Part shown: positions 736 to 45,084 of the stretch, piece after piece
Layout of the letters: every line of letters begins with the position of its first letter
Position numbering within the stretch: the first letter of the stretch is position 1
Assembly: GCA_003427395.1 (NCBI GenBank)
Contig: BFEA01000039.1
Coordinates: 3,081,152-3,136,663 of the forward strand
Reading direction: 5' to 3'
DNA: 55,512 bases
From: Chara braunii
Lineage: Eukaryota; Plantae; Charophyceae
Notes under the pieces: model-generated
Seen by the model: the letters and a program-made list of their open reading frames with translations, nothing else
Database searches by the model: none
Told to the model about the DNA's origin: nothing
Made by a program: the position numbers and the translations under genes

Positions 736-1475
736 CCGGAGGATACAGGCAAAACATTCCTCATAGAAAACGATTAAATAAAACGTATCAGGCAGATTAC
801 AAACACAGTCCTCAATCCCTACATCCACGCAAGGAAGAGGACCTTTTTGTTGTCGTTCTTGCCTGGACTCAAGATTCTAGGGCTCTGTTTGTAACCTTGG
901 CTGAGGAGGAGGACAATACAAAGAAGATGGACGATATAGGCCTACATTAGCCTTTGCAAATTACACGAACGAGACAAGTCAGCCAGGTTACAAATACAGT
1001 CCCACATCCCTAGATCCAGGTAAGCAACAAGAAGAAATGAGAAAGACACGTCCTTCAAGTGTTTCTGTTCTCAGACAGAAATTCCACCTCGAGCACTACA
1101 TGTTTTTCTCCCCCGACCACTACAAGTTCTTCTCATACCTTTAAAAAACTGTATTTTTCATTTCGTTGTCCTTGTTCTTTGAATCGGAAATATAGGGCTA
1201 TATCTTTAACCTTGGTTGTGGAGCAAGAACATGGAAAGATGGGTAAGGATACAGGCCTACATCTTTCTAAAACAATGACAGAATTACAAGAAATCTGGCA
1301 ACTTATTAATAAAACCATAAATATGTCCTGCTTCGGTCCTTGAAGGAGTGTATTTCTTATTTATTTGTAATCCAAGTTTATAGCACTATACTTTTAAAAA
1401 TAGCAGTTTAATATTTCGAAAAACATGCAAATCATAAGAGTTATTCTTACAGCGAAATTATCAAAGACAATTTTT

Positions 1476-1482
<7 letters not shown>

Positions 1483-1565
<83 letters not shown>
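1483..1565. repeat. (CT)n microsatellite
   Basis: Direct read of the sequence. Confidence 0.98.
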
Positions 1566-1569
<4 letters not shown>

Positions 1570-2298
1570 TTTGTAAATCTGTTTATTCGATACTCCTGAC
1601 GATCTACACTGGAACCACGGTCATTAAGCAACTACGACGCTGCTCGACGCTGCTTTCTCTCTCTCTCTGTTTGTATTTGTATGTTTGCTCTCTGAGCTAC
1701 GACGACGCTCAACGATGCTCGTCCTCTTTGAAATTCTTTTTTGTCGCTCCCGACCTTGCGGAGTCTTTCTCACAATTCAGAAATCTTGTAGCGGGGTCGT
1801 CCAAATTTTCCTGGTTTGGTCTCCAAGAAGTAAAATTCCGTATTCAACCCGTAAGCGGGCGCTTGGCGTTCAATATTGTTTGTTTTACTGGGTCGTGGCT
1901 CTCCGAAATTTGGTCGCTAGCTCTCTAAAATTTCAATTTTCGAGACGACCGTTGGCGGAAAATCTAAATTTTAACGATGTTCTTGACGACGATACCAGTG
2001 GCTGGACGGTCGGAATTATTTGTTTTGGCGGGAGTCCGGGCTCTCCGAATTTTTATCGCTAACGGTCCGAAAATTACACTTTTGCAAAAACCTTGATGAC
2101 TCTTCCTTCGCGTTCTAGATTTATGACCATTTCGAGGGTTTACTGCCCGAAAGTTCTTATTCCTGCATTGAAGAGGTTCTCGGTCTGTTCCACATGTCCG
2201 AAATTCAAGACAGGCCGTTCACAGACAACAAGTGCGTTCGAACGAGGTAATGACATAACCTCAGTGCTTATATTCTTTCCCCCTGTCTTCGTGACCCT

Positions 2299-2302
<4 letters not shown>

Positions 2303-2361
<59 letters not shown>
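2303..2361. repeat. (CT)n microsatellite
   Basis: Direct read of the sequence. Confidence 0.98.
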
Positions 2362-2364
<3 letters not shown>

Positions 2365-2644
2365 GTTCATTCTTCGATGTTTGCCACAATGCGACTGATT
2401 GTTTGGAATTATATCCCTTTAAGTTGTTTTTGCAGAAGGTAGAGGCTGTGACTTGCACATTTACGGAAGGATTCTCATGGAACTCTTCTTCGTCTCTCCT
2501 ACTTCTTCTTCTTCTTCCTCTCTCTCTCGCTCTCTCTAAATGTTCTTCGTGTAGAAAGAAAAATGAATCTTGTGTCGACGCATACTGGAAAGGATTCTTA
2601 TGAAAGTAGTAAGTTTGGTAAAGAAATAGTTAAACGTCTTCTCT

Positions 2645-3055
2645 TTGTCTCAGTTATAGTCCTATAACACTTTGTCTCTTATTCGTCTTCGACTTTTCAG
2701 AGTTAAAGCCCTTTACCACTTTATCTAATAATCGTCTTCATGACGCCTGTGTTGCCTTCCCCGAACTCGTTGAGTCAATCAAAATAAAATTTTTGGGGAA
2801 GAATGAATTGGAGATTCTACGATGTTTGTGGACTCACTTTTCTGAGTTATAGCCCTATAACACTTTGTCTAATAATCGTCTTCGACTTCTCAGAGCAAAA
2901 GCCCTTTAACACTTTATCTCTTAGTCGTCTTCGATTTTAAAGCCCTTGTTATTAGTGACGTCTGCATTGCCTTGCCCAAACTTCGAATGTTATGATGCAC
3001 GACACTTGTGGACTGACTTTCCTGAGTTATAGCCCTATAACACTTTGTCTAATCA
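2645..3055. repeat. Array of near-palindromic GTTATAGnnCTATAAC motifs upstream of the transposase
   Basis: agttatagtcctataacac (~2652), gagttatagccctataacac (~2844, ~3024), degenerate aaagcccttta versions (~2705, ~2898), each followed by actttrtct. Confidence 0.8.
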
Positions 3056-3148
3056 TTGCTTTCGATTTTAAGGCCCTTCATCGTGCTTTGTCTCTTTTCT
3101 TTAACATGTTTTGACAAAGTAACCGCTTGTTTTGTTATTTGCGCAAAA

Positions 3149-4771
3149 ATGTTTGGCAAGGCACTAGAGAAGCACCGGTTAATGCAAGCAGAAGAGAGAC
3201 AAAAACTCAGTAAGCATCGCCACAAGGCTTCAAGTCATCCGTTAGAGTATGTCGCAATAATCATTGATGGGATGAATCAGAGCAAGACTATACTGTCACA
3301 CTTCACTAGGGTTCCAAAGGATTCAAATTAAAAGAAGAGAACTTTGTGAAAGTTCACGTGGTTGGGGCTAAGGTGCTAGGACTCTCATCGAACGTCTCTG
3401 CAACTGTTTTCTTTGACAATTTCAAATCAGATTCTAATTGCATGCTAACTGTTCTCATCGTCAGATTTCTCAACTTTCTCTACCATTTCCGAGAGTCCTG
3501 TATCTTACACTTGATAGCACTTCGAAAGAGAACAAGAACAAATTAGTGTTGTCATATCTCGTGTTCTTGGTGAAAATGAGAGTGTTTAGTAAAGTTAAGT
3601 TAAACTTTGTTCTTGTAGGTAACACACACGAGGACATCGACCAGATGTTCAACTGTTTTTTTATAAAGCTTGCTGCACATGGTGCGTTCGATCGTCCTGA
3701 GTTGCAACATGTGATTAGGGAGTCGTACAAGGTAGAACAAGATCATGGCGTGCACGTTGAGGAGATGACAGAAACAATGGACTGGAAGTTGTACGTTCAG
3801 GATCATCTACATAATGTCAATGATGTTAGCTTCAACCAACATTTCTGAATCAAGCGCAACGACAATGGGGAGGTGCACATTTGGAGCAAGCAATATCATA
3901 ACTCACAGTGGCAGCCGAACGACAGAGAAGGTATGGACATCTTCAAGTCAGAGTCAACATGACAAGTTCAAGCTTCGCCAAAGCATGCAATCCGATCTTT
4001 GGAAGCAAGATATCAACTTACTTGTCGGGGTGAGGACGAGAGGCGTGATAAGTTCGTCAGCAGTGAAGGTCATGTCCGTAATCGAAAAGCAGGAGGATCT
4101 TCTGAATTCAAGGTGACGATGATGTACTCTCCATCGTCGCCTTGAAAGTCAACGTACATGCCCTGTCGCATTACGCTCAACCCCAGAACATTGAATGCTG
4201 GAATAAGTTTATAGCAACGCAGGAAACTCTCAACCTTGAGGACACAAACCTCAAAGAGCCTTTCGCGTGGCCCTCTGTAACAACTGATGTCAGCAGAGCA
4301 GGTGAAGAAGTTCCACAAACCGCTAACGGCTTTGACCAACGCTGGGATGAACTTTTCCCTCCTGAGAGACCCATCTACATCGGCGCACGAAAGAGCAGAT
4401 AGTTTCGAGAGGACAGAGACGGAAAGTACGACGATCTTGAGGTCAACACTTTCATCGCATTACGAGCTTGTTCGAGGCAGGAAGAGAGAGGCAAACCTTA
4501 CCAAATTAACAAGGTTGTCGAACTGCTAGCAGGTAAACGATTCAAAGTTGCTTGGTTTGCACAACGTGAGAAAGGAGAGGGTTATTATCCTCAGTTCAAA
4601 ACAAATCCTCAAGGAAAGACTATGAGAGAGCCTTCCGAGGACGTCTATGACTGGAGCTGCGGCGTGCTTTGTTACAACTTCCAACTGAAGACAGACAGGA
4701 CCCTCTTCTCGCAGACCAGACAAAAGATCTCTGAGATGTTGAATTTCATGGCAACGGAGGATGTCGACTAG
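3149..4771 (+). pseudogene. Decayed DDD-type DNA transposase (Sola-like / DUF7869-like), with frameshifts and stops
   Basis: Joining ORFs 3056-3331, 3346-3546 and 3438-3848 gives IIDGMNQSKT ... LYLTLDSTSKENKNK ... FVLVGNTHEDIDQMF, matching the IDGMxQ / LDxxxxENKN / VGHTHEDIDQxF motif set. Coding-like sequence continues through PPERPIYIG and DLEVNTFIAL..KPYQINKV..FKVAWF to TAG at 4769-4771. Family assignment is from remembered motifs. Confidence 0.72.
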
Positions 4772-4978
4772 GAAGACCTTCTAGGAACCGATTGCTTCGG
4801 AGGTTGGCAGAGTGTCATCGAGATCGAGGTCATTTCTGCTTCCGCATTAGATCAGGTTTCTTTTTGTCGCTGTNTTCTAGGAACCGATTGCTTCGGAGGT
4901 TGGCAGAGTGTCATCGAGATCGAGGTCATTTCTGCTTCCGCATTAGATCAGGTTTCTTTTTGTCGCTGTTCAACAGAT

Positions 4979-5173
4979 TATCTGAGTTTAGTCGTTAGCG
5001 GCTTGTAAAGTCTTGTAAATATGTACAACAGTAGGTTGCAGTTCGCAGCCAGGCACGTGTGGCCAACCTTTTTGTTATCTGAGTCTAGTCGTTAGCGACT
5101 TGTAAATTCTTGTAAACTTGTATAACAGTAGGTCGCAGTTTGCAGCCAGGCACGTGTGGCCAACCTTTTTGTT
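4979..5173. repeat. ~98 bp tandem duplication
   Basis: atctgagt.tagtcgttagcg.cttgtaaa...gcagccaggcacgtgtggccaacctttttgtt occurs twice with a few substitutions. Confidence 0.9.
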
Positions 5174-5379
5174 TTCACGATCTTTTCCAAATGTACTTTG
5201 CGGTTTTTCACTTTACAATTTTGAGATTTTGGAAATTGACTCACGATTTGCCGTTTTGGTTCCGGCTTTTCGATTTGCGGTTTGTCATTCATTTTTTGAC
5301 CAAAACATTTGTTACATGAACAATTATCGATTTGCAGTTTGTCATTCAAACTCTCACGACATTATGCTCTTTTCTACTT

Positions 5380-6100
5380 CCAACAAAGTCGTGTTAGAAA
5401 CCTACAAGGTCGTGTTCGAATTTCATTGAATTTTTACGACGTTCAACATTGCGTTTACAGCGTTTCAAACACCTCACCGATTACGGATTAAAATTTTTAC
5501 GCCCGCCAAGCTTCATGTCAAATTCTAGCGAAATTATGTTATTTTTTTACTTCCCTAAAATTCGCGTTATAGGCCTATAAGGTCGTGTTCGAATTTCGTG
5601 GAATTTTCACGAATTTTAACACTGTGTTTTTAGGGCTTTAAATACTCGACTGATTGCGGACTAAAATATTGTACCCGTGTTTCGTTTTCAAACAGTCGTT
5701 ATAGGCCTATAAGGTCGTGTTCGAATTTCGTGGAATTTTCACGAATTTTAACACTGTGTTTTTAGGGCTTTAAATACTCGACTGATAATTGACTAAAATT
5801 ATGCTCTTTTTTTACTTTCCCAAAATTCGCGTTATAGGCCTATAAGGTCGTGTTTGAATTTCGCTCAATTTTCGTGATGTTGAACATTGCGTTTATAGGG
5901 CTATAAACACTTGACCGATTGCGGACTAAAATATTGTACCCGTGTTTCGTTTTCAAACAGTCGTTATAGGCCTATAATTCGAAAAGTGCGGTTTTCGAAT
6001 TTCGAGAGAATTTCCCAGGGTCTCTTTCAAATCTCGTGAGATTCGGCTCTTTTCTGCATTTGCGCAAATTCGAGTTATAGGCCTATAAGATCGTGTTTGG
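5380..6100. repeat. Subterminal-type tandem repeats (~130 bp) carrying the TTATAGGCCTATAA palindrome, downstream of the transposase
   Basis: gttataggcctataa at ~5566, ~5698, ~5831, ~5963, ~6074; tttatagggctataaa at ~5892; most are followed by ggtcgtgttcgaatttcg. Confidence 0.85.
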
Positions 6101-7031
6101 AAGTCGTTGAATTTCCGTGACGATCGAATATGGTCAATTTGGTTGTCCACAACTTTTGGAGATTTGAAATCAGTTGTCGTTGGCTGTTTTTTGCTTTCCT
6201 CTGCATCCCGTTTTTTTATTAACTTCGTTTTCAAGCTTCTATTTCCTTAGTATTATGAGTGCAAAGAAAGAGGCTCTGTTCGCCTTGCCAGGTTTTCGGT
6301 TAGTTTTTACGTCCTTGGATTAGGTTCCGGAAAAGACTCTCTGTTTTGAAACAAAATACTACTTCCAATGTACAGTACTGACTGGTCGTTTCGTTATGCA
6401 CTCAAATCTCCATAAATTGGAGATCTTTTCGTCGGCCATGAGTAGGAGTCGCCTGTTCGTCTCCAAAATGGGCTCTTTTTTCCACGTTGTAGTCGGCCTC
6501 ATATATTGACTGATTTTTAGGGGGGGGTTCGATGACATTTGCGCATGAAACGGTGCAAAATTCACCTTTACTTCTAAAAAAATGCTATGTTCCATTGACG
6601 TTTTTCTGTCTATAGGATTTCTCTGGTTTTGGTTTGTTTCTCTGGTTTTCACGAATCTATTGTTCCTTGCCTTATTCACATAAGCTCCAGTCTTTGTCCA
6701 ACCTTCCGAAAAGAAACACTCAGTCATTTTTTAAATGGTCATTTAACAAAAGTCTGGGTAAAAACGTAAAAAAAAAATTCAACCCACAAGGGTGAAGGCC
6801 TTTAGGTTGAGTAGCGAGAATGAGTTGGAGTTTGACTGGAAACCGACCTGTTATTAAAAGACAATAAAAGATGACTCTCATAGGTCAGCTTGAACCTAGT
6901 CAAGCCACGGGATAATATAAAATGATAATGACCTGCAACACAACATAAGCAAGTACCAAGACTATGTTGAGTGAATATGAAATAGTCCTACTTTTCTACC
7001 TCACCTCTAATACCTATTTCAAAATGTCAAG

Positions 7032-7610
7032 AATTTTGGCAATATGTTCCCTACGTGGGAGCAGGCTGTCAAATTTTAAATGTTCCCAAATATCATGACT
7101 TCTCTAGATCTCAATAAATTTTGGCAGCGCTTCTCATATGGTAAGTACCTTTGCATAATTTATATAAGACTGAATATAGAGTCTGGAAGTGATCTTCTAA
7201 CTTTAAAAATTAAATTTTGTCTAACTCTTTGAATTATTAAGAATTTGTGCATCTCCTTTACAGAGGTAAGCTTGAACTCAAGATAAATTTGAATTATGTC
7301 ATAAGACTCATAATAAAATTTAACTAACTCTTTAGTTTTGTAGAAATTTGGACAACACTTCCCACGTGAAAAATGTTTTTTCAAAAGTTATCTGAAGCTA
7401 AATACGGAATCTAAAAAATAACTTTGACTTTACAAAGCCAAATTTTGTCTTACTTTTTAAATTAGCAAAAAATTAGGTAGCATCTTCTTTAAAGTAGTAA
7501 GCTAACATCAATTCACATATAAACTCGGACAAAATTTAAGTTTCGTAAAGATAAAATTTAACTAAGTCCTTAGATTTGCATAAATTTGGGCAACACTTCC
7601 ATTAGTGAGA
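7032..7610 (+). repeat. Degenerate ~85-125 bp repeats with core AAATTT(T/G)GGCAGCACTTCC
   Basis: Cores at ~7032, 7116, 7240, 7344, 7470, 7581; reverse-complement cores at ~22670, 22790, 22915, 23016, 23138. Confidence 0.75.
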
Positions 7611-7960
7611 GTGCATCTCCAAAGTTTATACAAAGTCAAGTATGCAAAAATAAATCTATATTAGAAAATGCTTAAATTTGAACTAAGTAATAAAAAATAA
7701 ACTCATCTTATAAAATGCAGGATATGAATTAACTCCTATAGCTTTAGCACGTGGCAAACATTTAGAGCAGATAACTATCGAAACTAAGGTTCATAATTAA
7801 GTTGATTTCTCATTCAACCACATGCAAGTCCATACCACAGTGGGTAAGTACTCTCACCAAAATCTCAAGTTATTTTCACATAAGTAGTTCACCATTTATC
7901 GATTAGATAAAAATTCATGAAACCCCAATACCCCAGCTTACATATGTCATAAGAAGGTCA

Positions 7961-8298
7961 AGTCAAACTGAAGCCATATTGCTTATCCTTTCCCCTTTGT
8001 ATACAAAAAATAGAGGTTACAACTAATTCTTTCAAGTTCTTCATGAGGCAGTTAACGAGACCAAACCGAATCCACATTGTCTAGTTTTGTCAAGTGCTTA
8101 ATTTCTAAGTTATAGTAACTCTCTGAACCTTTTAATCTTTTGAAGACTAAGACTGAGTCAAACCGAAGTCACGTTGCTCTGTCCATCTTTGATTACACTC
8201 ATTATATTCTTAATTAAGTATTCTTTTTCTTTTTGTGATATGCTATAGTGAGACGAAATTGAAACCACATTGTTTGACTAGTTTGTTCAAAAGGTACT

Positions 8299-8335
<37 letters not shown>

Positions 8336-8790
8336 TTTATATTTTTAGGTTTTTTGTTATGTGCGTGACTTCGGACTAAACCAAACTGAAGCCACATTGC
8401 TTAGTTTTCAGTCCAAACCTCCCTCAGAAAAAACAAGTAGTTGGATTTGACCGAAGTCACATTACCCAACTCTTAAACTCTTTTCAACAAGCAACCCACC
8501 ACAAGAACGACAATCATACCTGACCGAAGCCACATTGTCTAGTTTGAGTAGGGAATATAACAACATAGCATAGTCGCATAGACCAAATCGAAACCATATT
8601 GCCTAGCTGCTTAGATAACAACTTACAGAGGTATGTCAATCAAACCTGACCTAAAACACAGTGTCTGATTGCCAAGGAAACAAACAATGCAACAGTCAAG
8701 CCTGACCTAAGCCACATTGCTTGGCTGTAAAGAAGACGAATCACCAATACAACAACAATGTAGACCTAACCAAAACCGCATTGTTAAGTT
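7961..8790 (+). repeat. Array of ~11 dispersed ~28 nt repeats (consensus AGACCWRACCGAAGCCACATTGYYTAGT) with largely unique spacers
   Basis: Copies at ~7961, 8058, 8156, 8250, 8378, 8445, 8516, 8580, 8642, 8698, 8762; period ~57-125 bp. Confidence 0.85.
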
Positions 8791-9059
8791 GCAGAGGAAA
8801 CAAAAATAAACAAAGGAGGCCCAATCAACACAAACAAAACCACCTTTCTCCCACATTTTCCCAATTCATCCCTCTTAGTCTGAATTTCAAGCAACAATGC
8901 AAGGTAAGATTCACACAACCCTTTCCTTCACCTTATCTGATTAAATTTCAGAAAGAACTAGTAAAACAAAAGATTACATGCATGTATTTCAATTAAAGTA
9001 TAGAGATGTACTTATAGAGGATTAGTTGGATCACACAAAGCAGAAAGATGGTATATCTG

Positions 9060-9320
9060 ACTGTTCCCTGCCTCCATAACTCCTCATGAGCTCCGACAAA
9101 GCTCCCACAATCGGTGGGTGGATCTTCCACAAGGCCTTACTGCAGTCTTGTGGGTTGCAATCCTACCTGTTGCCTTCCTCTCGTAGCCACAAATTAGACC
9201 TCGATTAAGAAGGGCAGAAGGAGGGGTTTCAAACTCTCGAGATACAAGTATGGGACAACTCAACTCGTGGGAGAGCACCTTGATGTCTGGATGCGCTTCG
9301 GGACCCCGAAATGGCAGTAA
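9060..9320 (+). pseudogene. Small unknown ORF remnant in copy L
   Basis: FPASITPHELRQSSHNRWVDLPQGLTAVLWVAILPVAFLS* ... FKLSRYKYGTTQLVGEHLDVWMRFGTPKWQ*. Several differences from the copy at 21120-21381 are synonymous in this frame. Confidence 0.6.
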
Positions 9321-11711
9321 AAAACGTAGTTAAAGATGATCAAATTATGGTCAAAGTGCAGTGTAACGGCTTTCTGGCGAGCCTCCATGTCGCAGAAATT
9401 GCCCCCTTGTAAAAAATTGGTCACTCACTTGGTCCTCCACGCTCCAATCACTGCGCAGAAAGCAGCTACATAGCTCCAAAATGCTCTGTTTAAATCGAGC
9501 ATATCCTTATGCTCTTGGAAGTTGCGCGCACGACAAGTATGCCCAACAACAAGTCATTTCATCAATATGCAATGCTACACAGCAACCGTAGTGCCACACA
9601 GTAACAACACCACGATACCCAATGCACCGCACAACAAACACACAACAATTAAACAACATTACACAATTCGGGCCTTGCTGTAAAACATAGGCCAGGTTTG
9701 CCACAAATACACATGTTATAACGAAAATAGGAAAAAAAAAAAAAACTGACTCGGAACACGTAGACTGAGTCTCGCTACGAAGTACAGGCCAGCCCGCTAC
9801 GAGAACACAGAGCAAGGATGACTGACAGGGGGCCTGAATTCATCACCACATTGTAAACCACATAGTCGTGCACCAAGCAGAAAACAACAAGCACCGAAAC
9901 ATGTGTCGGATGAACGCAAATACTATGCACTCAGGTGTTGTGAACGACCCTTCCCGCTGTCATCAACAAAAGGGCAACGTCGCCCTCCTCATATAGCACC
10001 TAGAGCCCCACCTGCTAACCCTAGACACCTACCTAGCCTACAACTACAATGACATCTGAGTCCACCTTGCAACTAAAGACTGAAATGCGAGACTTTGACG
10101 CTCATGTAGTCTGTCAACTAACAAGTACGTCTCGCTACTCTCTCTCACGAGCGCACACGTGAGCTTGCTTCCCTCGGGCTTCAATTGGATCACGATAAGC
10201 GGCAGAAGTAACACGGTCTACTGCAACTCCCGCCGACCGACATGCACCTGGCCTTAGCCTTTGGCCAGGTTCCAATTCATCACAACCCATAGCAAGAGTC
10301 GCGATCCCGATGATGACAACACTAGTAACGGATGTGATGGTGGACAACACTATGACGAACCGTGAGAATGAGAAACACGATGGCGAAACTGGATGGTAAG
10401 TAGGACCTCGTTACTCACCAAATGCGCAACATGAAAATAAAATTTTGGTTAAAACATGCGGAGATACATATGATGCGAGGTTACCTACCAGGTGTGCAAA
10501 ACCAGAATGAATCTCCTACTCTCGTTGTATGTAACGCGCTCTCCCGTTTATATCCATACAACTCCTTATCCCCTGCGTTATTCCATCTTCAACCACCTTA
10601 CTGCAATCCGTTCAATAAATTGGTGGACATGCTTGCGATTATCACCCACAAATGCAGTTTATGTTCGCCGTGCCACCCAAACTAGGGGCTCAACCCAAAG
10701 TCTCTTTCCATAAATCAACTCGTTAGGTCCAAAAAACCCCAGAGTCGAATCTTAGTTTGCCCGATTCTATTAAGGATCGGGGGAACTTATTCACTTCTGC
10801 TCGCTCCTCTACGACGCACGCTAATCGCTTCATCCTTTCTTCAAGTTAAAGTACCTGGCTCGTAATTCCGACCAGGTTCTTCTTGATCCAACAATAATTA
10901 ACGGTGTTTGGCCAGGAAGGCAATCACTCATGTAATGGGGAGTTCAACTTCAAGTGAGGCGACAACAGCGAGTTGAAGAAGGATGCCGCTACTTCGGTGA
11001 AGAGGTTCGTCGTGGCTATGTCATGCGCATAATGACCAAGGAGAACCCTGCGCACAGTACTCAGGCAAGGATCACAAGTGTAATTCCCATAACGAATACG
11101 TACATTGTCAACATGCAGCCATCCAAGCATAGTACACCAGGATCGCGGCCGCTATCAAGCGCATGGGCGTCCGAGACTAGGAGCACCGCCAGACGCAGCA
11201 CAAGCTCAAAGATGAGCCAAGGTGTGATCGAAGAAAAGACAAACATGAACTCTCGGTCTCGATACGCCCATCTAAATGGGCAAACAAATCGTCCTTTCCT
11301 GTGCGTGCTCAACCCGATCTCCCACATCCGACCTTTCAGAGCAAACTTTTCGAAAGTATTAGTGGCGGACCACGCTGCTCTTCCCTGTATCGTTCCAATT
11401 TTAACAAATGTCCCGAAGAACTGATTGTTGGGGCCGTGGCCTCAAGATATCATCATTGAACAAACCCGCCGCTAGGAAATTAAGAAAACGTAGTATTTCA
11501 CTCATCTGCTCCCATCAAAATTTTAACTTGGGACTGTGTTTCGAGAGCTCCGAGGTGTACCAATCCGAGGCAAGCCAGCAAGTTCCAGGACCGGCCACGG
11601 TACCCGTATCGGAACAGTGTCTCGAAAGTGTGACTTTTGAGGGGGGGAAAATAGAAAGTTAAAAATAAATAAAAATAAAAATAAAAAATGACGAGGTTGT
11701 ACCAAGGGGGA

Positions 11712-13195
11712 TGTATAGTAAATATTACTTACTATCTCACTATGCGCCCTTATTATTTGTTATGATGTTATTTTTAATTGTTTTGTGATGTATTGAAATA
11801 TTCTATTTTTTATGACTATCAATGAAAAGTTTCTCTTATCTTGAAATGTTATTTTTTTTAACATATCTCTCATTATGCTTACTTCTATTTAAATATAAAA
11901 GTAATGATAGATTTAAATTTTTACTATCAGTTTTAAATAAATACATAAATTAAAAATTCATAGCGCACTTAGAGGTAAGGTATTACCTACAAAAATAGAT
12001 GCATCCATGCTAGAGATTACCGTATCTCCTATTGTAATTCCACGAGGGTATAATATATATCTTTTTTCTCCATCTTCGTAATTTACTAAACATATATGGG
12101 AATTTCTATTAGGATCATATTCGATACTTAGAATCAATATATGATATTTATGATTATTGATCAGAATTATAATAGCAAATAATAATAAATAGCTACTTAA
12201 TTATTTACTTCTTTGACACCCCTTTATCCCTCCAGTCGGTCCCAGGGTCGGGACCCGACAACAAAACCAAAAGGGATAATCCTACCAATCCCTCAACCTC
12301 TTGGTGCTCCATTGTCGTTGGTTGCTGGTCTCGATCCTCGAACCTGTTGCATAGTAGTGAAATATCGTAACCAATAGTGGTATGCCCAAGGCTGGTGCGG
12401 GCATTAGCAAAAACCCATATAAACAGGTCCCCGTTACTGCGCAGCCTTACCGAGATGCCCCTATACCACACCCTGGCCTACTGGTCGGGCCACCGACCAC
12501 CAAGGCTAACGTCATTGTCGTGCGGGAGTCCGGTACTACCTACGGCTTGTTACTATATATGGCGAAATATTTTAGTCAAATTCATAACTTTTTAATCATG
12601 GATTCTAAGTTTTTTTAACCATCAGTACGCAATAAAGAATCACTCGCGCCTTAAACTCGTGCATCTACACACTCCCTACTCTCACCTCGTGTGCCCCCGC
12701 TGTCTGACTACAAGGAGTTGGCCGCTAGCCGTGCGACACTTACGTAAATATCCACCTCTTATTCCACGTCAAGTGCAACGTATGTGAGGTGCAAATATAC
12801 CCGTGTAAAGGTATTCACGTCGGCAATGTCTATGGGCAGAGAAGTGGATTCGTCCAAGAAGAAAATCATGACTGCGGGTTAGGCAGGTACTATGGGTCCT
12901 CTGACTTCCAATAGGTACATCAAACAAACCAGTTGGATCTCGCCGGTATCACCTATAGGCTTTAACGTTGTAAGTTGTTGTTTAGTCACCTGTCCCCCAA
13001 TCAATATCAATAGATGGGTAATCAACTCCCATACGGTCAGTATCCGCCGATTTGGACCTTACCACTTAGCGTGCTCACTGAGTCACTCCGACTGGATTCG
13101 ATAAACATCGGGGTTAATAACTACTCTAACATACTCATCGGTCGTTTCAATCGTGTTTGGAGCGAGATCCTTGGTAGAACTCTGTCAATGTAACA
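11712..13195 (+). mobile_element. Candidate LTR (3' or solo)
   Basis: Short purine tract aaggggga (11704-11711) directly followed by TG; abrupt AT-rich shift; ctatatat (~12553) then aataaa (~12631); possible CA ends at 13187 or 13195. No second copy in the window. Confidence 0.3.
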
Positions 13196-15734: not shown

Positions 15735-16030
15735 AATTGACATTTCGTTAAAACTGACATTTTTTTCTAAATTCACGAAAGTGGACTTAGTCAAAATTTC
15801 ATTGCTCATCGGGTGAGAAACTGGTTATCTCACTTTGTCCATCTGATGTACCTCAACGTAAAGTAACGTTAACATACATCCGATAGTTAGATCATCGACA
15901 GTCTCCACGAAACCTGATGATGTGATCATCCGACGTCATGAGGACAAAAAAACACTAAAAAATGTTGTTTTTTTGTATGCTCGATTTCGTGAATTTAGAA
16001 AAAAATGTTAGTTTTAACGAAATGTCAGTT
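15735..16030. mobile_element. MITE-like element with ~43 bp terminal inverted repeats
   Basis: tgacatttcgttaaaactgacatttttttctaaattcacgaaa (15738-15780) is the reverse complement of 15985-16027 with one mismatch. Tentative 4 bp TSD ctgt at 15731-15734 and 16031-16034. Confidence 0.75.
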
Positions 16031-16737: not shown

Positions 16738-18116
16738 TGATCAAGCACCTCTGGTCCCCACGCGTACGCTAAGCGTTGGAATGTAGGAAGATAACCACCA
16801 TATCCGCCTCACACCATCTCACTCAACAATACCCACAGTAGCTCAGCGCTCGCACCAAGTCAGCGCTCACACTTGTGCATGTTCCAATCGCAGCGCCCGC
16901 CTTCGCATGGTGCTATCGCAGTGCTCGCGGCAGCAGCCCATGCGACATTCGCTCACACCAGCAGTGCAGCAACGCCGCCGCCCTGCGCTCCATCGTGTTG
17001 CAACCTGAGTGCAATCAATTTTCTTGGGCGCCTTGCCTCTGGTTCCCCAACTCATGAATGATTTCTGACGAGGGGTTATTGCTTTTGGGAAAGCAGGACC
17101 AATGGAAGACCCTCTCTTCCAAGTCACCACTGGCGTAGGATTTTTGACGTAGGATTGTTGAACTAGAGCACACAAAACATTTGATAAATTGGGTCCTAGC
17201 GGGGCGGTGGTCGAAGTGCATTGCATCTGAAAAGATGGGAGAGAGGCGACTGGGTTCAGGTTGACCAGCTCAAGATCACTTTGAGACGCCTATCATTGGT
17301 AAGTAAGAGGCTGAGGAAATTCTCTGCAACAATCCCAACACATTGGCTAGATCTCCTCCGCTGTCGGTGCGAATACCCTTACAAGGGTATCCGCCCAAGT
17401 TTTTTTCAAGTGTCAGAAAATAAGTTTTGTTTGAAATTTGATAATACCGCGCAAGGCGCGGCTGCGTGTTGTGTACGCTGATTGATTGATCGACCAAAAG
17501 TAGAGAGTGTGTGGGCTCGTAAACTTAAGGCGCTCGTGATCTCGTTTCCCTTTAATGATTGTGAAATCGACGTTGGTTGCCGACAAAATTTTTATTTCTG
17601 ATTAAGTTAGGATTAAAAAGATTTTGTTTCTGGACTGACACACTTGCCTGTGACTTGTGCGTACGTGTGGAGGACGACATCAACAACAATGTGATTTTGA
17701 AACATTTCGGTAGATCGGCACGTTGTGCAGTATCCGCTTATTTAGATGTTCATCAATACTAGACTTAGCCCTGGGCCTAGTACTATTGGTTGCGGTGTCT
17801 GACTTTCATTTGAGAGATTGGGGAATCGAAGCTAGCGAGCGATGGTACAGGAGCATGGGAGCGACAAGAGGGAAACCAACGGGTTGAGGGTCCGACGAGG
17901 CTATCCCAGTGTAACGCTGGTCCACAACGTTACACACCGAGACCGAGAAGGTATTAGTAAACCCCATTTTTCCCTTCCCCTCGCCGTGCGGTTTTGCTTT
18001 AATTTTGTGGTGATTATTTTATTCCTATTTAATGGTTACTAGGCCAGATGTCAGACCGAGTCGTCCGGGACCTGGTACGTTAGGGATGATTGGAGAAACT
18101 CCTTTATCCTACTCAT

Positions 18117-18420
18117 CTTGAATCACGAACGGTCATTTCGTCAAAAATGACATATTATATTTTTTGAAAGAAATTGAAATTGAGTTTTTGGGCCGAAATC
18201 CGGTCCAAATTTTTGGCTCTGGGGGGTAGAACGTCGGACCCCCTAGATGTATCTGACCTCAAGCAGAGACCAAATACATCTAAGGGGTCCGGCGTTCTAA
18301 GAACGACGGACCCCAAGGAGTCAAAAATTTGGACCGGATTTTGGCCCTAAAACTCAATTTCAATTTTGTTTAAAAAATATAATGTGTCCGTTTTGACGAA
18401 ATGGTTGTTCACGGGTCGAG
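18117..18420. mobile_element. Foldback/MITE-like element forming a ~135 bp hairpin
   Basis: gaacggtcatttcgtcaaaa...ccggtccaaatttttg...agaacgtcggacccc.tagatgtat pairs with atacatcta.ggggtccggcgttct...caaaaatttggaccgg...ttttgacgaaatggttgttc. Confidence 0.8.
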
Positions 18421-18828
18421 GAGCTCAACGTGCATGCAAGCCGGGGTGGGTTTAGCCCATGAGGATGAAGGGGCCTGAGCGGCAGGGGCCTGAGCGGCAG
18501 GGGCCTGCTGCCGGCCTACTATCCGCTGACTGGCGGTCTGCTGTGTGAGGTTCGTGTGTGAGTATGTTTGCGGAGGCCGACAGGTTACAGGTTGACCCTG
18601 AGCGAAGGTCGTAGCAGCACCCGGGCGGAGTCCTGGCAGCTATTTTCATGGGACCCCCTCTGCCTTGGCCTTCGTGTCCCCTCTGAAGGTCGTTACAACC
18701 ACCGAAATTTGTATTGAGGACTCGCCTCACCTAGGCTCACTTCACAAGCTCTGTGGTAAGCCCTGCGCCTCCACTCGTTACCCACAAGCGGTTATCGGGT
18801 AGCTGAAAATTCAGGAATGAAAATTCAG

Positions 18829-19100
18829 AAGTGAGAGTTTTGGGCAGTCTGAAAATCTTGAATGGTCCTGAAGTGGTGAAAGGTCCGAAGACCTTGAAAA
18901 CCACCTGTTTAGGCAGACTGCATCCTCAAGTAGTGAAGGGTGGTTTTCATGGTCTTCGGACCTTTCACCACTTCATGACCATTCAGGATTTTCAGACTGC
19001 CCAAAACTCTCACTTGACCTGAATGGTCCTGAAGTGGTGAAAGGTCCGAAGACCCTGAAAACCACCTGTTTAGGCAGACTGCATCCTGAAGTGGTGAAGG
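18829..19100. repeat. Inverted triplication (A, inverted A, partial A)
   Basis: 18829-18906 is the near-perfect reverse complement of 18939-19016, and 19018-19100 directly repeats ~18858-18940. Confidence 0.9.
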
Positions 19101-21119
19101 GTGTCCTGAAGTGGTGATGAAAAATACGACTGTTATTAACCTTCTCTCTCGTTACCGTGTTGAAGCTCATTGCGACGGATGGATGTAGGCTGCGTGAGTC
19201 GACACTTTTTTCCAAGGCTGACTGCTTCGACAGAGGAGTAATAGCTCACATGAGCTTTAATCTTTTGTGAACGGTGTTCTGCTCGCTGAACTGATTGTCG
19301 CCTCTTGCGGGGTATGGATTAACGCACCGTAACGCAAAACGGGAGCAGAGGAAAGTGTGGGAAGGGTGAAGGCAGGCGGAAGGAAGGTGTACAGAGGAAG
19401 AAAAAAGAAGTCAGAGAAACTCGCAGACACCAAGACCAAATCCGGGTGGAAGTCGGGGCAGGTGCATTCGGCAATAAGGAAGGCGGAATGGAGTGAGGGT
19501 GAGTTATGGTAGAGATTGAAAGTGTATACCTTGCTCCTTTCTTGATGAAAATGAGCGGAGGAAGATAGTAGGTAAGGGATTTGGGCCTAGGCGAACACAG
19601 ATATGAAGTTAGTTTTCGAAGAAAATTAATAAAATCGGAGGTTAAAAGAAGAAAGTCTGAGTTGAGTTATGACGGGAATAGAGATAGAGGAAGGAGAGAA
19701 ATCGGGAACACTACTCGATTTTCGGTATAATCGATCGAAAATGAGGTTTTAAATTAAAGGTTTTAAAGGTAGGCGATCTCGAATTTGGAGTCGGATCGGT
19801 CAGACAGTTCGTAGAATAGCAGGTAGTAAGAAAATGAGGTGCGCAAGGTTATCGAGAGTGTGGATATGGCGGGAGTGAGGAGTATAAATTTCAGTCGATT
19901 TTTGGTAGAATTGGGTGAAATAAAGTGTTAAGCAATGATTTTGCATTCCTACGAAGCGAATGACGGGGTCAGTTTTGGCAGAGAGATGTTAGTTTAGCGT
20001 GGCAAAGAGTAAAGGGCTGCGTGATGGACCTACGAGAAAAGGGACAGGAATAGGCACGAATCTCTCCACATATTAGCGAAAGATTCATTTTGATTTCGCT
20101 CATTTAAACAACGGAAATGGTATGAGTCTAGCCTCGGGGTTACAGACTTACATATTGCCCTGCTCATTGATCGTCCTTTCGATGGGAATAGGGTCTCTCT
20201 ATCTCTTTGTACACGCGGCAAGGATAGCGGCGTACTCTTCCGCCTTTATGCAAAAGATCCGTACGCATCAACGAATGGGTAACCAGCGACATCGTACTAC
20301 GTAGTGTCGACGATACCTCTTCGAAGACGTGGTGGCTCTCCGCACCATAGTAATATGGACTGCATCCCTCTCGGTTGTAGTGCCCGCCAGCACGATCACC
20401 TCCGCTGTACAGACCGACTTTTTGACATTATCGGTCACAGCGGGGAATGATGCATCCTCGACTTTACCTTCCTACATGCGGCTTGGGGCGAATGAACTTA
20501 TCGAATAACTAGCCTGGTGCACATAAAACAAGGGGACAAGTAAGGAGGAGGGTCGTGGGTACGCACTTGGTTTAGCAACGGACTACAAAGACAATATCCT
20601 CATGCACTCCGGTTGCTGCTATTAACGCTAACAAGAAGCACTGTCGATTCGTAGACTACTGGTAGTTGGCCAGTGAGCGCTAAGTAGGGAGGGTATGCAT
20701 TGCCCGAGTACAATCATTCGAGACTGAATAGTTGAGGCTTAGCCAGAGGGGGGGGCACCGCGGATGTTGTGGGAGGAGCCTAGATTCTGCTATGGGACAA
20801 TGAGAGTCTGAGAAACGACCATTACTGCAATTTGGAGGGTTGGTCAGTGGGTTGTTACAGTGTGCTTGGGCTATTACAATGTAAATTGTGCTCCGTGGTG
20901 CGTTTACACCGCGCTAGCTATGCATTCTGCTGAGCTACGGAGCGCATTATTAGGCCTATGGAGTGCAACTCCATAGTCTTAAGGTTTGAATAGGGCACAA
21001 GGGGGGTCATGTTCTACTCAAAGACAGTCCTCCCAGATTGTACGAAGAGGGTTATTTCAACGATTTGGAAGATCGTAAGGAGAGTCAACGTCAGTTGACT
21101 AAGCGGTTGTGCATTTTGG

Positions 21120-21381
21120 TCACCATTGCGGGACCCTCAGGCGCATGAAGGTATCAAGGTCCGCTCCTGCGAGTTGAGTTAGTCTATCTCCTGTATCTCG
21201 AGAGTTTGAAACCCCTCAGAGTCCTTCTGCCCTTCTTAATTTCGGTATAATCCTGTTCAGAGAGGAAGGCATCAGGCGGGATTGCAACATGTAGGACCGC
21301 ATCAAGACTGTGTGGGGAGTCTGCCCACCGATTGTGGGAGCTCTGCCGAAACTCGGGAGGAGTTTTAGAGGCAGGAAACAA
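21120..21381 (-). pseudogene. Small unknown ORF remnant in copy R
   Basis: FPASKTPPEFRQSSHNRWADSPHSLDAVLHVAIPPDAFLSE..IKKGRR..GFKLSRY, then after a frameshift TQLAGADLDTFMRLRVPQW*; homolog of 9060-9320. Confidence 0.6.
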
Positions 21382-21660
21382 AGAGGTAAAAGTTTCATCC
21401 TCCTTCTATAAACCCCGTTATAACCCCTATTTGTACATCCTTCTACAGTTTCACTGAGTGTATTGGATGCATCCCATTATTGTTTTTTTGAGTTTAACTT
21501 TCATAATATAACTCAAATTTAAGTAAAAGAAAACATGCACAACCTCACTTTTAATTTTATTGTTTGACTGAAAGTAGATTGTAAAAAGAGTTTGCATATT
21601 GGGGAAGGATGGGAGGAAGATGGTCTTGCCTGTGTCTGACTGAGTCAACCAAAGGGTGGG

Positions 21661-22365
21661 AGAGTCTCCATAAGTTTGGAGGGTTCAATTCTATGTGTAT
21701 TTTTTATTGCATGGAGGACCAGACAAGTTTCCATAAGATTGCATGGTCTAGTTGCTCTGACTTGTGATTGAATTTTTCAGAGACCAAGCAGACTTCCAGA
21801 AGTTTGAATGACTTGATTGCCTTGCTTCCTTCGGGTTTTTCATGTTTTAGTGGTTTCTGAAAAAAAGTTGAGCATGTTCAATAAGATTGGATGACTCCAA
21901 CTCTTCTTATTTTATTCTGGGGGGAATTCAGGCTAAGGACTGGACATGTTTCCATAAGATTGGATGGTCTGGTCTAGAGCCACGCACATGCTGGAACCAC
22001 ACTGATAAGTTTATTTATATTTTTATATTATTTTACTTATGAACAAGTTAGTCAGACATGTTCCCATAAAATTGGATGGTCTTACTATAGCTTATCACCA
22101 GCTGAAGAGAGTAGCAACTAAGAGTAAACTTATGGTAAGAAGGGGCTTGCTGAACGTTGATTTCAGTTCAACGGTTTAGTCATATGTTACCTTAAAAGAC
22201 TAAGTGCAAACAAATATATATAACTTGGATACTTTAAACAGTTCGTGGCGACTAGGTTGGACAACCTAGTCATATGCCAAAGGAAGAGAAGAATTGTAGT
22301 GCCTTGTGTTTGTGTATATCCAATGGCTGAGTTAAAAAGTCTTCCATAAGATTGGATGGTCTAAC
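21661..22365 (-). repeat. Array of ~7 dispersed repeats (plus-strand consensus AGACATGTTTCCATAAGATTGGATGGTCT) with unique spacers
   Basis: Copies at ~21661, 21721, 21789, 21871, 21942, 22054, 22337. Confidence 0.85.
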
Positions 22366-25300
22366 TTTACGCCTTATGTAAATTAGATATAAGAGACAAA
22401 TCATTGAAAGACTACGAACTATTGTTTGATAAGAGTACTTATTATTGTGGTTTGACATTGCGTATGGCTGAGTGGGATCATTACCTAGTCTAAGTTTCAG
22501 TTTGATAGGTAGTTGCTTTAGAGGTTCGCCACGTGCTAAAGTTATAAGAGTTAGTTCAATTTATGTATTTTTTTAGTTAATTTTTCTTACTCAGGTTAAT
22601 CCTCACATTTTTAAGGATTATTTGTTATGCTTAGCTTCGTATAAATCTAAGTTAGTTACTTTTCCTACGGGAAGTGATGCCAAAGTTTCTACGAATCCAA
22701 AGAGTTAGTCAAATATGGTTTTTCAAAGTTCAACTTTTGTCTAAGTTTTATAACTGGCTTAGTAAGAATCTGAAAATTTTTCTTTTCTAGGGGAAGTGCT
22801 GCCCAACGTTTTACTAAATCAGGGAGTTAAACAAAATTTAACTCTGCAAAGTCAAGATTATTTAAAGTTTTCAATTTGACTTTGTATAAATTTTAGAAAA
22901 CTATTTTCTTTACAAGAAGCGTTCTCAAAATTTTTACTTGTCCTGGCAGGAATTCAAGTCTCAATTCGAGTTCTTATCTAACTTGGTATAAATCTGGAAA
23001 GTCTACTTCTCTAAAGGAGATGCTGCCCAAATTTTTAATAATTTACGGAATTAAATACAAATGACTTTCTAGAGTTAAAATTATTTCAATTCCCATATTG
23101 GAGCGAGTATAAATTTCGAAAAGACACTTTTCCTACGGGGAGCTCTGTTGAATTTTTTTTAGTTTAAAGGAGATATATTATATTTTGAAAGGTGGCGATT
23201 CTGACAATTCACTTTGTATGGGGGAGATTCTGTCATAAGTCTACCTTTCTTTGAACACTGACTTAGAGGTAGATTTAGACTTAGTTCGCAGAAGAATATT
23301 AAGTGAGAATATGCTATGGAGGTTCATTCCCCATACACTGATAGTTTGTTTTGGGAATTTGTTTGTCTTGTGTTACATGTCCTGTTTGATTGATTCGATT
23401 AAGGATTTGGACTAAATTCAATTCGATCCACGATGATCATCTTTTGTTATCACTTACTCGGATAACAGGTCGGTTTACGATTCAACTCCAACTCACTATC
23501 GCCAAACCAACCTAAAGGTTTTAACCTTGTGGTTTGAATTGTTTCATTTGGGTTTCCATCTAGACTTTATTAAATGGTCATTTAACAAAGATACTAAGCG
23601 CTTTTATTTATGGAAGGTTTGACGAAGGTTGGGGCTTATATGGCTAAAGCAAGGGGTATCATGATGAGCGCTGAAATGGTTGAAGTTGACCCCGTGTAGT
23701 GCGTGGACTTCTGGTTGAATCTTTGATATAATTGCAGGTATGTTTGTGGTTGGGCTTTGGATTTGAGTGCCTGCGATTACATACATATATATCGCTAAGA
23801 AAAGTCTCACTATGATTATGAGAAGTGATCCTTACATATTTATACCCTTATATATATGTACGTACATTTGTTTTGAATACTCATGCGACCTACTGTGACT
23901 GTGCGTAAGGATGAAACATAATTATGCTTTGCGAGAAAAGGGAGAACCCCTTTTACTCTTATGTTTTTTATAATTATTATAGTTGGACGTTATAGTTCGT
24001 GGCAACCGTCAAAGTCAAACCCCTTGAGTTCTCTCGAGGCCCTGGATGATGGAGTTCGTCTCCAGGGCAATAAGAAACGATTGGTACCACACATATGAAC
24101 TTGTGTACCACCCACTCTCCGCAGGGTGCAGAAGAGGGTGTGGTCCTCAACCGCACTTGGCAGTTGTCTAGCGTCGAGAGATTAATCCCTCAAACCGCGT
24201 GTCAGTCGACACTTGAGTGTCGTAAGCGATTCTCGGATCCACGAGGGACTGCATGATTATGGACGTTACATAGTACGCCATCATTGCGTCTGCTTGCATA
24301 TTTATGCATTGCTAGTCGATATGAGAAGGCCCTGCGTCTGCACAGTTTTATACTAAGTCTCACTCGCGACACCTATTCAATTTCCGCATCAAGAGGTTAT
24401 GGGATGGCTACTAAAGAGACTAGGGGTGTTGTTGTGTTGTTTGTTTTTTTTGTGTGTGTGTGTTTTAATTTTATGTTTTTTTTGTTCTTAGCATGGTTGT
24501 AACGCGTGGTGCGTGATATGCGTCCTAGTCGACCGACGACGAGTCGCGCTTGGGACTTCAGCCCCCCAAGGCGTCGATTCGCGTGCGGGTCCGATAGAGG
24601 CGTAGGACCGCGAATACCCCCTATGCTTCCATCTCTGCGATTGCAACTGATTAACTTTCGTATTGCCAGTGTGGACTGATAGTTCAGCGGGGATACGCCC
24701 ACCGAAAGGAGGTGACAACTCCCACAAGGTGGAGGTAAGTTGTACCTCGTGTAGGCCCTATCCTGTCGTAGGGGCTAGCAAGAGGTATGGCTGGTGCACT
24801 CGGCCGGAGCTGATGCAAAAGCTCCATTTAAGTATCGCGATTACAACCAACTCTTGCGTGACGTGGCCGGGAGGGTCCCGCCCTGTGAGGGACCGATGCG
24901 CTCGATACCACTCCCCCAAACCTGTTGAGGGTGAATGGTACTCCATCACAGAGGAGCGACTGTAGTATTCGGATCTTTGAAGAACTCGAAGATAACCTCT
25001 GACACGAATACAAATGGGAAGTACAGAGAAGCAATAAGCTCGCAGCCCAGCTCACACCCACAGCCGACGTGGCTATCTCCACGGCCTCCTCACTTCAGCC
25101 TGTGCAGGTGTACAGAACCACTATAAGGACTATAAAACCCTAACACAAAAAACATTATCGGAGTTAAAATGAAGCGTCCAACGAATTCAACGAAATGCCA
25201 TCTTTTTTATTATTTATCCAAGCATGTAAAAACTGGGCATATGACGTACCCTAAAACACGTATATATCACATAGAAAGAAAAACAAGAAAAAAAACAAAA

Positions 25301-43409: not shown

Positions 43410-44070
43410 CCCAAGACCGAGCCTGAAAATGATGCCGCGGNGTGTACCACGCCAATGNCAAACCAANACCGTACCTGAAACATGTCGAACACNGNAAGAT
43501 GCAGCGGCNCGGTAATAGTACCGACCCTGAAGTAAATCGCCNCAATGATCCCGGACCTGAGAATAAGCTNCCACAATGGTACCGAACCTGGAATAAACTG
43601 CCGCCAAGGTCTCGAATCTGAAATGAANTACCNCAGTCGTCCCAGACCTNAAAATAAATCACTGTAGAGGTTCCGAACCTGAAATAAATCGTCANNGTGG
43701 TCCCGGACCTGAAAATAAGTCACCCCAGAGGTTNCGAACCTGAAATAATTCGCCGTGAGGGCGTCGAACATGAAACGAAACACCGCGATACCACCGAACC
43801 CGACCAAACCCGAAATCCAATACCGGGCTGCTGTGCCACGCAGATGCCGAACCCATACAACCGTGCCATGATAATTTCGTACCTGTCCCGAACCTGATAT
43901 ACAGTGCCGCAACGTTTCCGGGCCTGAAACAAGCTGTCGCCAAGGTTCCAAACCTGGAACAATTGTCGTAGTGGCCCCGGCCCTGAAAATAAATCACCGC
44001 AGCTGTCCCAAACCTGACAATAAGTCACCGTAGTGAAACAACTGTCACCGGGCCCATACCGAACCTGGAG
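43410..44070. repeat. ~30 bp minisatellite with core CCGRACCTGAAATAA
   Basis: Cores at ~43521, 43551, 43582, 43612, 43642, 43673, 43702, 43734, 43888, 43918, 43948, 43977, 44008; many N bases. Confidence 0.85.
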
Positions 44071-45084
44071 CACGTTAGACACCACAGGACGTATCCACTC
44101 CGTAACAATCCTCGTATCCGTACCGAACCAAACACCATACTGTCGACCCAAGGTAGCACCACGCCAGGCTGTCCATGCGACTCCCGCTCTCAGAACATCC
44201 CGACTGTGGTAATGTTAGTAATCAAGCAAACCAGAGAAAGCGACGCAGGGAACCTCGACCATTGGAAGTAGTGAAAACTGTTAAAATCCGGGGAAAATGA
44301 TCAATCTGGGGTCAGAGCTGAAGGCGGGTAATCGAGGTGAAATTAGACCAATCTCCCAATAGTCATGGGTTCTTGTCCCTTTCATCGTTTTTAATCATTC
44401 TCCCCTTTTCTTAATTCTATTGTCGGAAATAGTAAAGTAACCGTAAGTTCCCCAATATTAAGTTCCGAGAAGGCTTAAATGAATGGTCAAATTCCTTTTG
44501 TTTCTTTTCTCTTTCACCATTTTAAAACTTTTTCTATGTTTTTAATTCCATTGCCAGGAACATAAAATAACAAGGGTATTCCCCCTATAATTAAATGCCA
44601 TGAAAAATAAAGACATTAAGGGATATTATGTTTTTTCCTTCTCCCCTACTGGTCTTAATCCCTTTTCCCCATCTTTAATTATGGTACTAAAATAGACAAA
44701 AATTTGAGGCCTCATTTCGGCCCTGGTCGTATGCTGCAAAAACGTTACGGCGAGGTCTGTTCCCACGATGCCTCTCCGCGGCAGACCGATCCGGGTCCAA
44801 CCCTCTAAACGGCCGGAAATGACGGTCTCCTGATAAGCCGAGTGCGCCCACCCATCTCGCTATCTTTGAGGGCTACTCGTAAGGTTCAGTGCGCTCAAAA
44901 TCTGGGGTGTCCTGAGTTCCCCATATCTTTGTTGCTTGGTCAACCCGGAGTACCGTCAAAACGCGGACTTGTCCTTGAGCCTAAGACCCAAAACCGCAGA
45001 TTTCAGGCGGCGCACTGCTTGTGGCCGCCTGACAGTTAGCCCGGACCACTTCTCGACGCCCCCATCGAGCCCTACCCACTTACG

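Follow-up and report, generated by a model that had tools for sequence, protein, structure and literature searches.

The units of the repeat-spacer array at 7956-8792 of the window analyzed here (55,512 nt of Chara braunii DNA; contig BFEA01000039.1, positions 3,081,152 to 3,136,663) are strongly supported as hairpins. This array (L) differs from its syntenic homologue (R) in the hairpin tip, which is a UUCG-type tetraloop in L and a UAAG(A/U)U hexaloop in R. We tentatively propose that the array may be a multivalent, subfamily-specific RNA-binding site, resembling a packaging or export signal, of a retroelement-like family. In this model, the row of hairpins would likely be a subfamily-specific docking strip for a candidate RNA-binding protein. 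The two arrays are laid out as follows.

7956 to 8792, minus strand: array L, 11 hairpin units, with cores starting at 7966, 8064, 8161, 8257, 8384, 8449, 8522, 8586, 8648, 8704 and 8768.
21666 to 22365, plus strand: array R, 7 hairpin units, with cores at 22357, 22077, 21965, 21892, 21809, 21744 and 21681, plus two degenerate units near 22260 and 22165.

The original prediction had described repeats in both arrays, with cores distinct between them, at syntenic positions and in opposite orientation. All of this was borne out. We found 11 matches to the L core in 7950-8800 (at most 4 mismatches of 16; mean of 0.03 and maximum of 1 in 300 shuffles) and 7 matches to the R core in 21650-22380 (shuffle mean 0.05, maximum 2), and cross-checking detected neither L cores in R nor R cores in L. 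The arrays are syntenic inverted homologues, with 6665-8325 aligned to 23654-22005 at 61% identity and 8822-9314 to 21642-21123 at 66%. Conservation edges are sharp at unit boundaries. The constant AGAC...GTCT ends ascribed to the repeats did not survive inspection: both are exact in only one of the 11 L units and two of the 7 R units, and pairing rather than sequence is kept. A conserved-block scan yielded two further family members, L001 and L002, giving a comparison set of four blocks (L, R, L001 and L002) and three arrays (L, R and L001). At the position of L unit B, the tip is lost both in R (22249-22270), leaving a perfect 10-bp palindrome, and in L001 (24-41), leaving a 7-bp one. We considered and discarded an L-type relic core at ~22165 of R, since L001 bears a hexaloop at this position and the L model does not match the site.

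Read on the minus strand of the window, an L unit has a position-specific outer stem of ~8 bp, separated by a 5x2 internal loop from an inner stem of 3 bp, which is capped by a tetraloop (UUCG in five units, UUCA in three, UUAG in two and UUUG in one). UUCG is a stable RNA tetraloop. Outer stem and internal loop recur in R units, whose inner stem measures 4 bp and whose hexaloop follows the UAAG(A/U)U type, matching it exactly in 5 of 7 units. The core had been thought to be swapped wholesale; the apical stem-loop does differ, but the outer stem and asymmetric internal loop are common to L and R. When the 11 L units were aligned, 83.5% of 121 cells were paired and 22 two-sided changes were spread over 9 of 11 pairs, counts that are inflated by relatedness among units and by drawing the structure from the same sequences. 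None of 500 shuffles scored as high, and slid structures reached 13-46%. Own arms of L units paired better than permuted arms (p 5e-5 and 3e-4 in two runs), and none of 20,000 permutations matched the cognate pairing of L001; the cognate signal of R was weak (p 0.02-0.16 in one run, 0.03 in another). The R-type tips comprise 14 distinct sequences; the closing pair is intact in all of them (AU 10, GC 3, CG 1) and the next pair in 13 (CG 6, UA 6, AU 1), with 12 two-sided changes. Only 6 nt are fixed in R-type units, and the bases on either side change in pairs. The hairpin model predates the retrieval of L001, and in L001, whose array has the same spacers, 10 of 10 units carry the hexaloop, set on five types of inner stem. 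By eye, one family contig carries a further L-type tip on a stem absent from the window (7 pairs). A conserved loop on covarying stems, as defines multi-hairpin RNA arrays, is therefore present here.

Spacers are unalike within an array: pairs above z>3 amount to 0 of 45 in L, 0 of 21 in R and 1 of 36 in L001. Their predicted uniqueness holds to this extent and fails between arrays, where spacers are homologous by position. The z values are 3.2, 4.9, 4.4 and 3.6 for L against R (four spacers, B-C to E-F), 11.1, 8.0, 3.1, 5.7 and 4.9 for R against L001, and 6.9, 2.2 and 2.1 for L against L001. Spacer A-B and the distal L spacers have no match in R (diagonal z<=1.1), and the distal L spacers match nothing in the R or L001 arrays compared. 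Different cores thus stand between homologous spacers at at least 3-4 positions, supporting the proposed lineage specificity of the core, which changed in concert at these positions. Since spacers do not align within arrays, the array is also, as had been proposed, something other than a neutrally decaying minisatellite. An old neutral minisatellite with decayed spacers, whose hairpins persist by mutational bias alone, is largely refuted and in our view highly improbable. The imperfect units of L and R, both decayed copies, and the local unit duplications in L001 are what this explanation would expect. Yet it does not fit the sharp conservation edges at the units, spacers that are unrelated within arrays and homologous between them, a loop fixed across five stem types, or flanks 5' of the conserved block (below) that lack detectable homology whereas the module behind them keeps it.

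The repeat-spacer layout and palindromic repeats also recall a small-RNA precursor or a CRISPR-like array in which hairpins are cut to release spacer RNAs. We give this hardly any credence, as the spacers are inherited by position instead of being acquired and range from 7 to 91 nt in length. The suggested comparison of spacers with viruses produced a best phage match of only E 0.07, and the Rfam search returned no family over the arrays. Acquired, regularly sized spacers matching foreign DNA, together with identical repeats, were not found. The stems span only ~12-18 bp, which is short for Dicer-like precursors. Scans of viral sequences gave no matches, and the R motif matched three times in bacteria, each time as an isolated hit of 21-22 nt. 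The literature search did not find a description of the array, the C. braunii genome paper and repeat library, which possibly name the family, being outside its scope.

The arrays lie in a larger conserved module, whose parts are listed below.

21115 to 23800, plus strand: module R, containing block, array, G-box region, minisatellite and a distal conserved end; the distal boundary is approximate.
6665 to 9322, minus strand: module L, truncated at ~6665; its last ~130 bp have no match elsewhere in the window.
9055 to 9322, minus strand: conserved block L (~265 nt), apparently non-coding, the 'small ORF' of the original prediction.
21115 to 21391, plus strand: conserved block R, with a putative splice donor at ~21388.
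7085 to 7600, no strand assigned: degenerate minisatellite of 103-125 bp, shared with R at ~22630-23150.
7748 to 7755, plus strand: octamer that we take to be G-box-like, kept in L and R (22528-22535).
12305 to 12680 with 17499 to 17855, no strand assigned: weak collinear homology, 58% over 166 bp and 66% over 68 bp.

The module is ~2.7 kb long, present in roughly 10^4 copies, and apparently non-coding. Its DNA depth, which is not a copy number, is 319-73,987 per bin inside module R, with a peak near 110,000 at 21271, compared with 7 in 20950-21048 and 345 in 23821-23900. Depth therefore agrees with the expectation that a high-copy repeat hosts the arrays. Summed over the arrays, it is 286-1,040 for the L type, 749-12,845 for the R type and 7-10 for unique sequence, a contrast indicating that L-type arrays are in the minority but did amplify. 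Two more spots in the module are very conserved (22435-22533 and 23623-23730; depth 57,000-74,000), and the one at 22435 has a donor-like consensus on the strand of the original prediction, opposite to the one proposed here (hereafter the opposite strand). The weak homology between 12305-12680 and 17499-17855, which has no codon periodicity, suggests that the L and R elements extend several kb beyond the block. The truncation of module L near 6665 may be due to an element at 3056-6120, in which a broken DUF7869 transposase (E 4.5e-31 at 3438-3848) precedes subterminal-type repeats (5342-6120).

The 'same small ORF' beside both arrays turned out to be a shared block in which every frame is interrupted by a stop or frameshift in either L or R, with 1-nt indels between subfamilies. 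Despite a codon-position bias of 17/7/8 in 9060-9183, we rejected a coding reading on the basis of these frame breaks, the indels and the protein searches. The longer-protein search retained none of 49 candidates. In the representative protein search, the sole match to the block among 1.84 billion was a chimeric-looking C. braunii gene model, and further searches retained 0 of 962 and 0 of 1 candidates (weak evidence, with 'near' lengths outside their scope). The donor-bearing block enters at least one annotated gene model. Its consensus folds at -50 kcal/mol on the proposed strand and -37 on the other, with 4 two-sided pairs each; single block copies show no excess stability over shuffles (z -1.1 to 0.7). 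An element-encoded factor, part of the original prediction, was likewise not found in domain and protein searches.

Stranded poly(A) reads reversed the predicted order of array and ORF, by which the array lay upstream: they place the block on the strand proposed here, not on that of the prediction, and upstream of the array. At the R block (21247-21345), coverage by runs X5 and X7 is confined to a single strand (16.5 vs 0 and 41.6 vs 0), and at L, X5 is biased in the mirrored sense (6.1 vs 0.8), library orientation being assumed on a basis that includes a few plastid reads. In both runs, RNA depth falls to 0 at 21445-21543 and is 0-3, of mixed strands, over the array. Run X6, with both strands and a profile like that of the DNA run, was left out of the strand evidence. 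As none of the X5 and X7 reads is 99% alike to R, they speak for the family, and R itself is not among the transcribed copies demonstrated. A G|GTA donor-like site occupies the same place in R, L001, the read consensus and the L family; it is mutated at the block end of L itself, where 9056 differs in 43 family contigs. By eye, 3 reads in X5 and 4 in X7 depart at 21379 into other sequence without GT, in a spliced-like manner. The array would then lie ~270 nt behind a putative donor, downstream of a transcribed block. Being just behind the donor, it would occur only in unspliced RNA. Among the joints listed (15, with 271 and 327 beyond these), none crosses the array, and a predicted last exon behind an acceptor at ~6852/23468 was discarded, having no RNA support among them. 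The opposite strand carries signals as well, namely an ATG whose place is shared by all 4 copies, the donor-like consensus near 22435 and the G-box, and the block could be an antisense-exonised piece.

Three lines of evidence give moderate support to a folding strand that is window minus for L and plus for R: 1) pairing in the L inner stem reaches 93.9% of cells on this strand versus 42.4% on the other; 2) L001:315-850 folds into 8 of 8 such hairpins, at z -7.8 for the proposed strand against -4.0 for its complement; and 3) the RNA reads described above. Folding of the arrays as RNA, which had been suggested for examination, is hence pronounced in L001 but weak for L and R as wholes (z -1.2 to -2.5); the R array scores -2.5 on the opposite strand versus -1.2 on the proposed strand. 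Single 35-nt units show no excess stability over shuffles (8 of 8 with z above -1.4). An excess of G-U over A-C pairs (35:11) was rejected as strand evidence, because arm pairs that are not cognate show it equally (L001 146:36, L 102:35), and it so reflects composition.

The outer stems of L pair about equally on both strands (79.5% vs 81.8%). This equality would suit hairpins acting in single-stranded DNA, such as minus-strand cDNA or a rolling-circle or recombinase intermediate, with the array marking the element for its own transposition machinery. Folded single-stranded DNA sites are known, attC- and REP-like sites being examples. Family contigs that gain and lose whole units, the collapse of unit B to a perfect palindrome in R and L001, and the scarcity of RNA over the array point the same way. 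We nevertheless regard this explanation as unlikely, since the L inner stem needs G-U type pairs and a UUCG loop, and searches near the module revealed neither an HUH nor a recombinase domain.

The hairpins could instead be RNA sites for a host protein (in splicing, stability, retention or methylation), the loop change being an escape from, or a switch of, host control. The covarying stems, fixed loops and L001 fold serve this explanation as well as ours, as does the position behind the putative donor. Multi-hairpin arrays are also found in transferrin-receptor mRNA, as IREs, and in CsrB/RsmZ. Arrays read by host proteins occur in MAT2A mRNA, where METTL16 reads 3' UTR hairpins (PMC7229813, as far as its accessible text goes), and, according to the excerpts available, in Nfkbid mRNA, with six Roquin-bound stem-loops. 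The METTL16 nonamer, however, is absent from the loops, and a hexaloop-to-tetraloop change within one genome would fit a co-evolving element protein better, making host control an improbable account. Judged from the same partial texts, these mRNA arrays resemble ours in having several hairpins, a conserved loop, a freer stem, unrelated spacers and multivalent binding (here predicted). They differ in belonging to single-copy host genes with stable loops, whereas here the loop is replaced between subfamilies and there is neither a motif match nor an Rfam match.

A further alternative is a double-stranded DNA motif array, made of VANC-like anti-silencing sites or Tnt1-like LTR enhancer boxes, whose stems are a by-product of palindrome-correcting template switches. 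According to the accessible portion of PMC5735166, VANC of Arabidopsis VANDAL elements recognises double-stranded DNA at a motif of 8-9 bp, which has spread through tandem duplication of the whole unit. Its target arrays, as described there, are like ours in their family-specific motif, in many one-orientation copies in non-coding transposon parts and in units that change together; the lineage-specific cores, single orientation and high density match this pattern. The G-box, donor-like site and shared ATG on the opposite strand would fit a promoter or 5' LTR, and Tnt1 has differently regulated subfamilies and BII boxes (PMC3316501, in the text available). By contrast, the stems here covary, the tip alone is fixed and the spacers are position-specific, and the word hairpin does not occur in the available text of PMC5735166. 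These covarying stems and the fixed loop tell against the VANC-type reading of the original prediction. Six fixed nucleotides with paired flanking changes in R-type units are too little for a lineage-specific DNA site. Amplification of the motif with a whole tandem unit was not observed (no L or R spacer pair at z>3), and the spacers are not homogenised with the motif, unlike VANDAL repeats as presented in that text. CpG is scarce in the arrays (o/e 0.28-0.53), with no sign of protection, and no protein was found. A DNA motif array thus seems doubtful to us.

Under the RNA-binding reading, the array in element RNA would bind a protein that the family encodes or recruits. Its history can be partly traced in the blocks, where 22 informative sites group L+R against L001+L002 (3 and 1 for the alternatives), though R shares its loop type with L001. 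From this discordance, the tetraloop is likely derived in the L lineage and the hexaloop ancestral. Recombination could also explain the loop distribution, because the 5' array region of R is nearer to L001 (70%) than to L (57%). At homologous positions, R and L001 have different inner stems, which are all alike in R but fall into local groups in L001, and whole units are skipped or repeated in family contigs. Conversion or template switching between hairpins would fit this pattern. We suppose that template switching or gene conversion, with stem and internal loop serving as homology, exchanged the hexaloop tip of the L lineage at several homologous positions, and that this lineage then amplified; conversion between hairpins would keep the array uniform. 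A more specific version is an RNA address code: template switching by reverse transcriptase would rewrite the apical loops of a fixed, position-specific hairpin scaffold together, enabling a subfamily to change all its protein-docking tips at once and to co-evolve with its own RNA-binding protein. We consider this version rather unlikely; if true, it would be an RNA-level counterpart of the VANC system.

The host of the array is presumed to be a retroelement. Pfam searches in six frames of 8900-13100 and 16800-21600 returned nothing but plastid rpl2 (decayed copies), and gag/pol domains were absent from the 4.2 and 4.8 kb adjoining the block. The longest stop-free frames are 112 aa in L001 and 136 aa in L002, and non-autonomous or decayed LTR copies are possible. 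CA followed by A-TGG, resembling an LTR end and PBS on the opposite strand, occurs in 2 of 4 copies, the following bases not being conserved, and family sequence runs on past the TG-like far end. The window contains one module per element and no second LTR was found in it; it also holds no tRNA genes. Terminal inverted repeats, searched without defined element ends, did not exceed chance-length pairs. With no RT, gag or other protein linked to the module, no second LTR and no terminal inverted repeat, the name retroelement is one we infer.

Known mobile-element signals offer partial parallels. The packaging signal near the major splice donor of retroviruses and the MusD transport element, in the available text of PMC3362945 and PMC11499389, likewise are stem-loops in non-coding mobile-element RNA near a splice donor with proposed protein docking. 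Those are single composite folds, whereas here 7-11 like hairpins undergo a lineage-wide tip change, and packaging or export is proposed only. Family-specific repeats in non-coding parts of plant retroelements are also described for Retand/Tat arrays and Tnt1 subfamily promoters (accessible parts of PMC11963269 and PMC3316501). Retand/Tat arrays are family-specific and tandem, with Retand reported only in flowering plants; the repeats run head-to-tail, unlike ours, and neither hairpin nor stem-loop occurs in the text available from PMC11963269. Chlamys Penelope-like elements attain very high copy number in the same alga, and the Chlamydomonas example has a transcription start and an intron in its terminal module (PMC8557442, in part). 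The module differs from them in lacking a match to the published consensus in exact words, an RT or GIY-YIG Pfam match and an Rfam match to the hammerhead, which two of their subclades carry. When 9 short module motifs were compared with the Chlamys consensus supplement as exact words, in which line breaks and divergence can hide matches, 8 were absent and 1 matched once in unlike sequence.

How plant retroelement subfamilies in one genome distinguish their own RNA from that of relatives is poorly known. Here, concerted change is confined to the hairpin tips while spacers keep their positional identity, and natural variants of the family, in which one scaffold bears either of two loop types, number in the thousands and are directly suited to tree-based covariation and loop-swap binding tests. 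At ~10^4 copies of ~2.7 kb, the module would be a sizeable, unclassified part of the C. braunii genome.

Other sequences were noted in the window. A plastid rpl2 fragment (11700-12210, minus strand; Pfam E 2.8e-16) is inserted inside the L element. A decayed U6 snRNA copy lies at 11334-11421 (minus strand, the same as block RNA; 32.4 bits against a gathering score of 44); for one 40-nt piece, DNA depth sums to about 350,000, and U6-derived copies may be very numerous in the genome. The intervals 10397-10806 and 11211-11623 are both matched by a single contig at ~80%, and 12868-13098 is a high-copy piece (depth ~15,900) with RNA reads. Palindromic MITE-like pieces occur at 18127-18410, 18829-19103 and 15735-16030, two of them within the upstream region of the R element. 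Ty3/gypsy remains (gag, zinc knuckle, RT and SH3) occupy 30700-53100; ahead of them, on the same strand, lie several ORFs (150-250 aa), and the 7 tested gave no Pfam match. Within the gypsy region, tandem repeats of 30-31 bp and 39 bp are found at 43500-44150 and 46406-46815, respectively.
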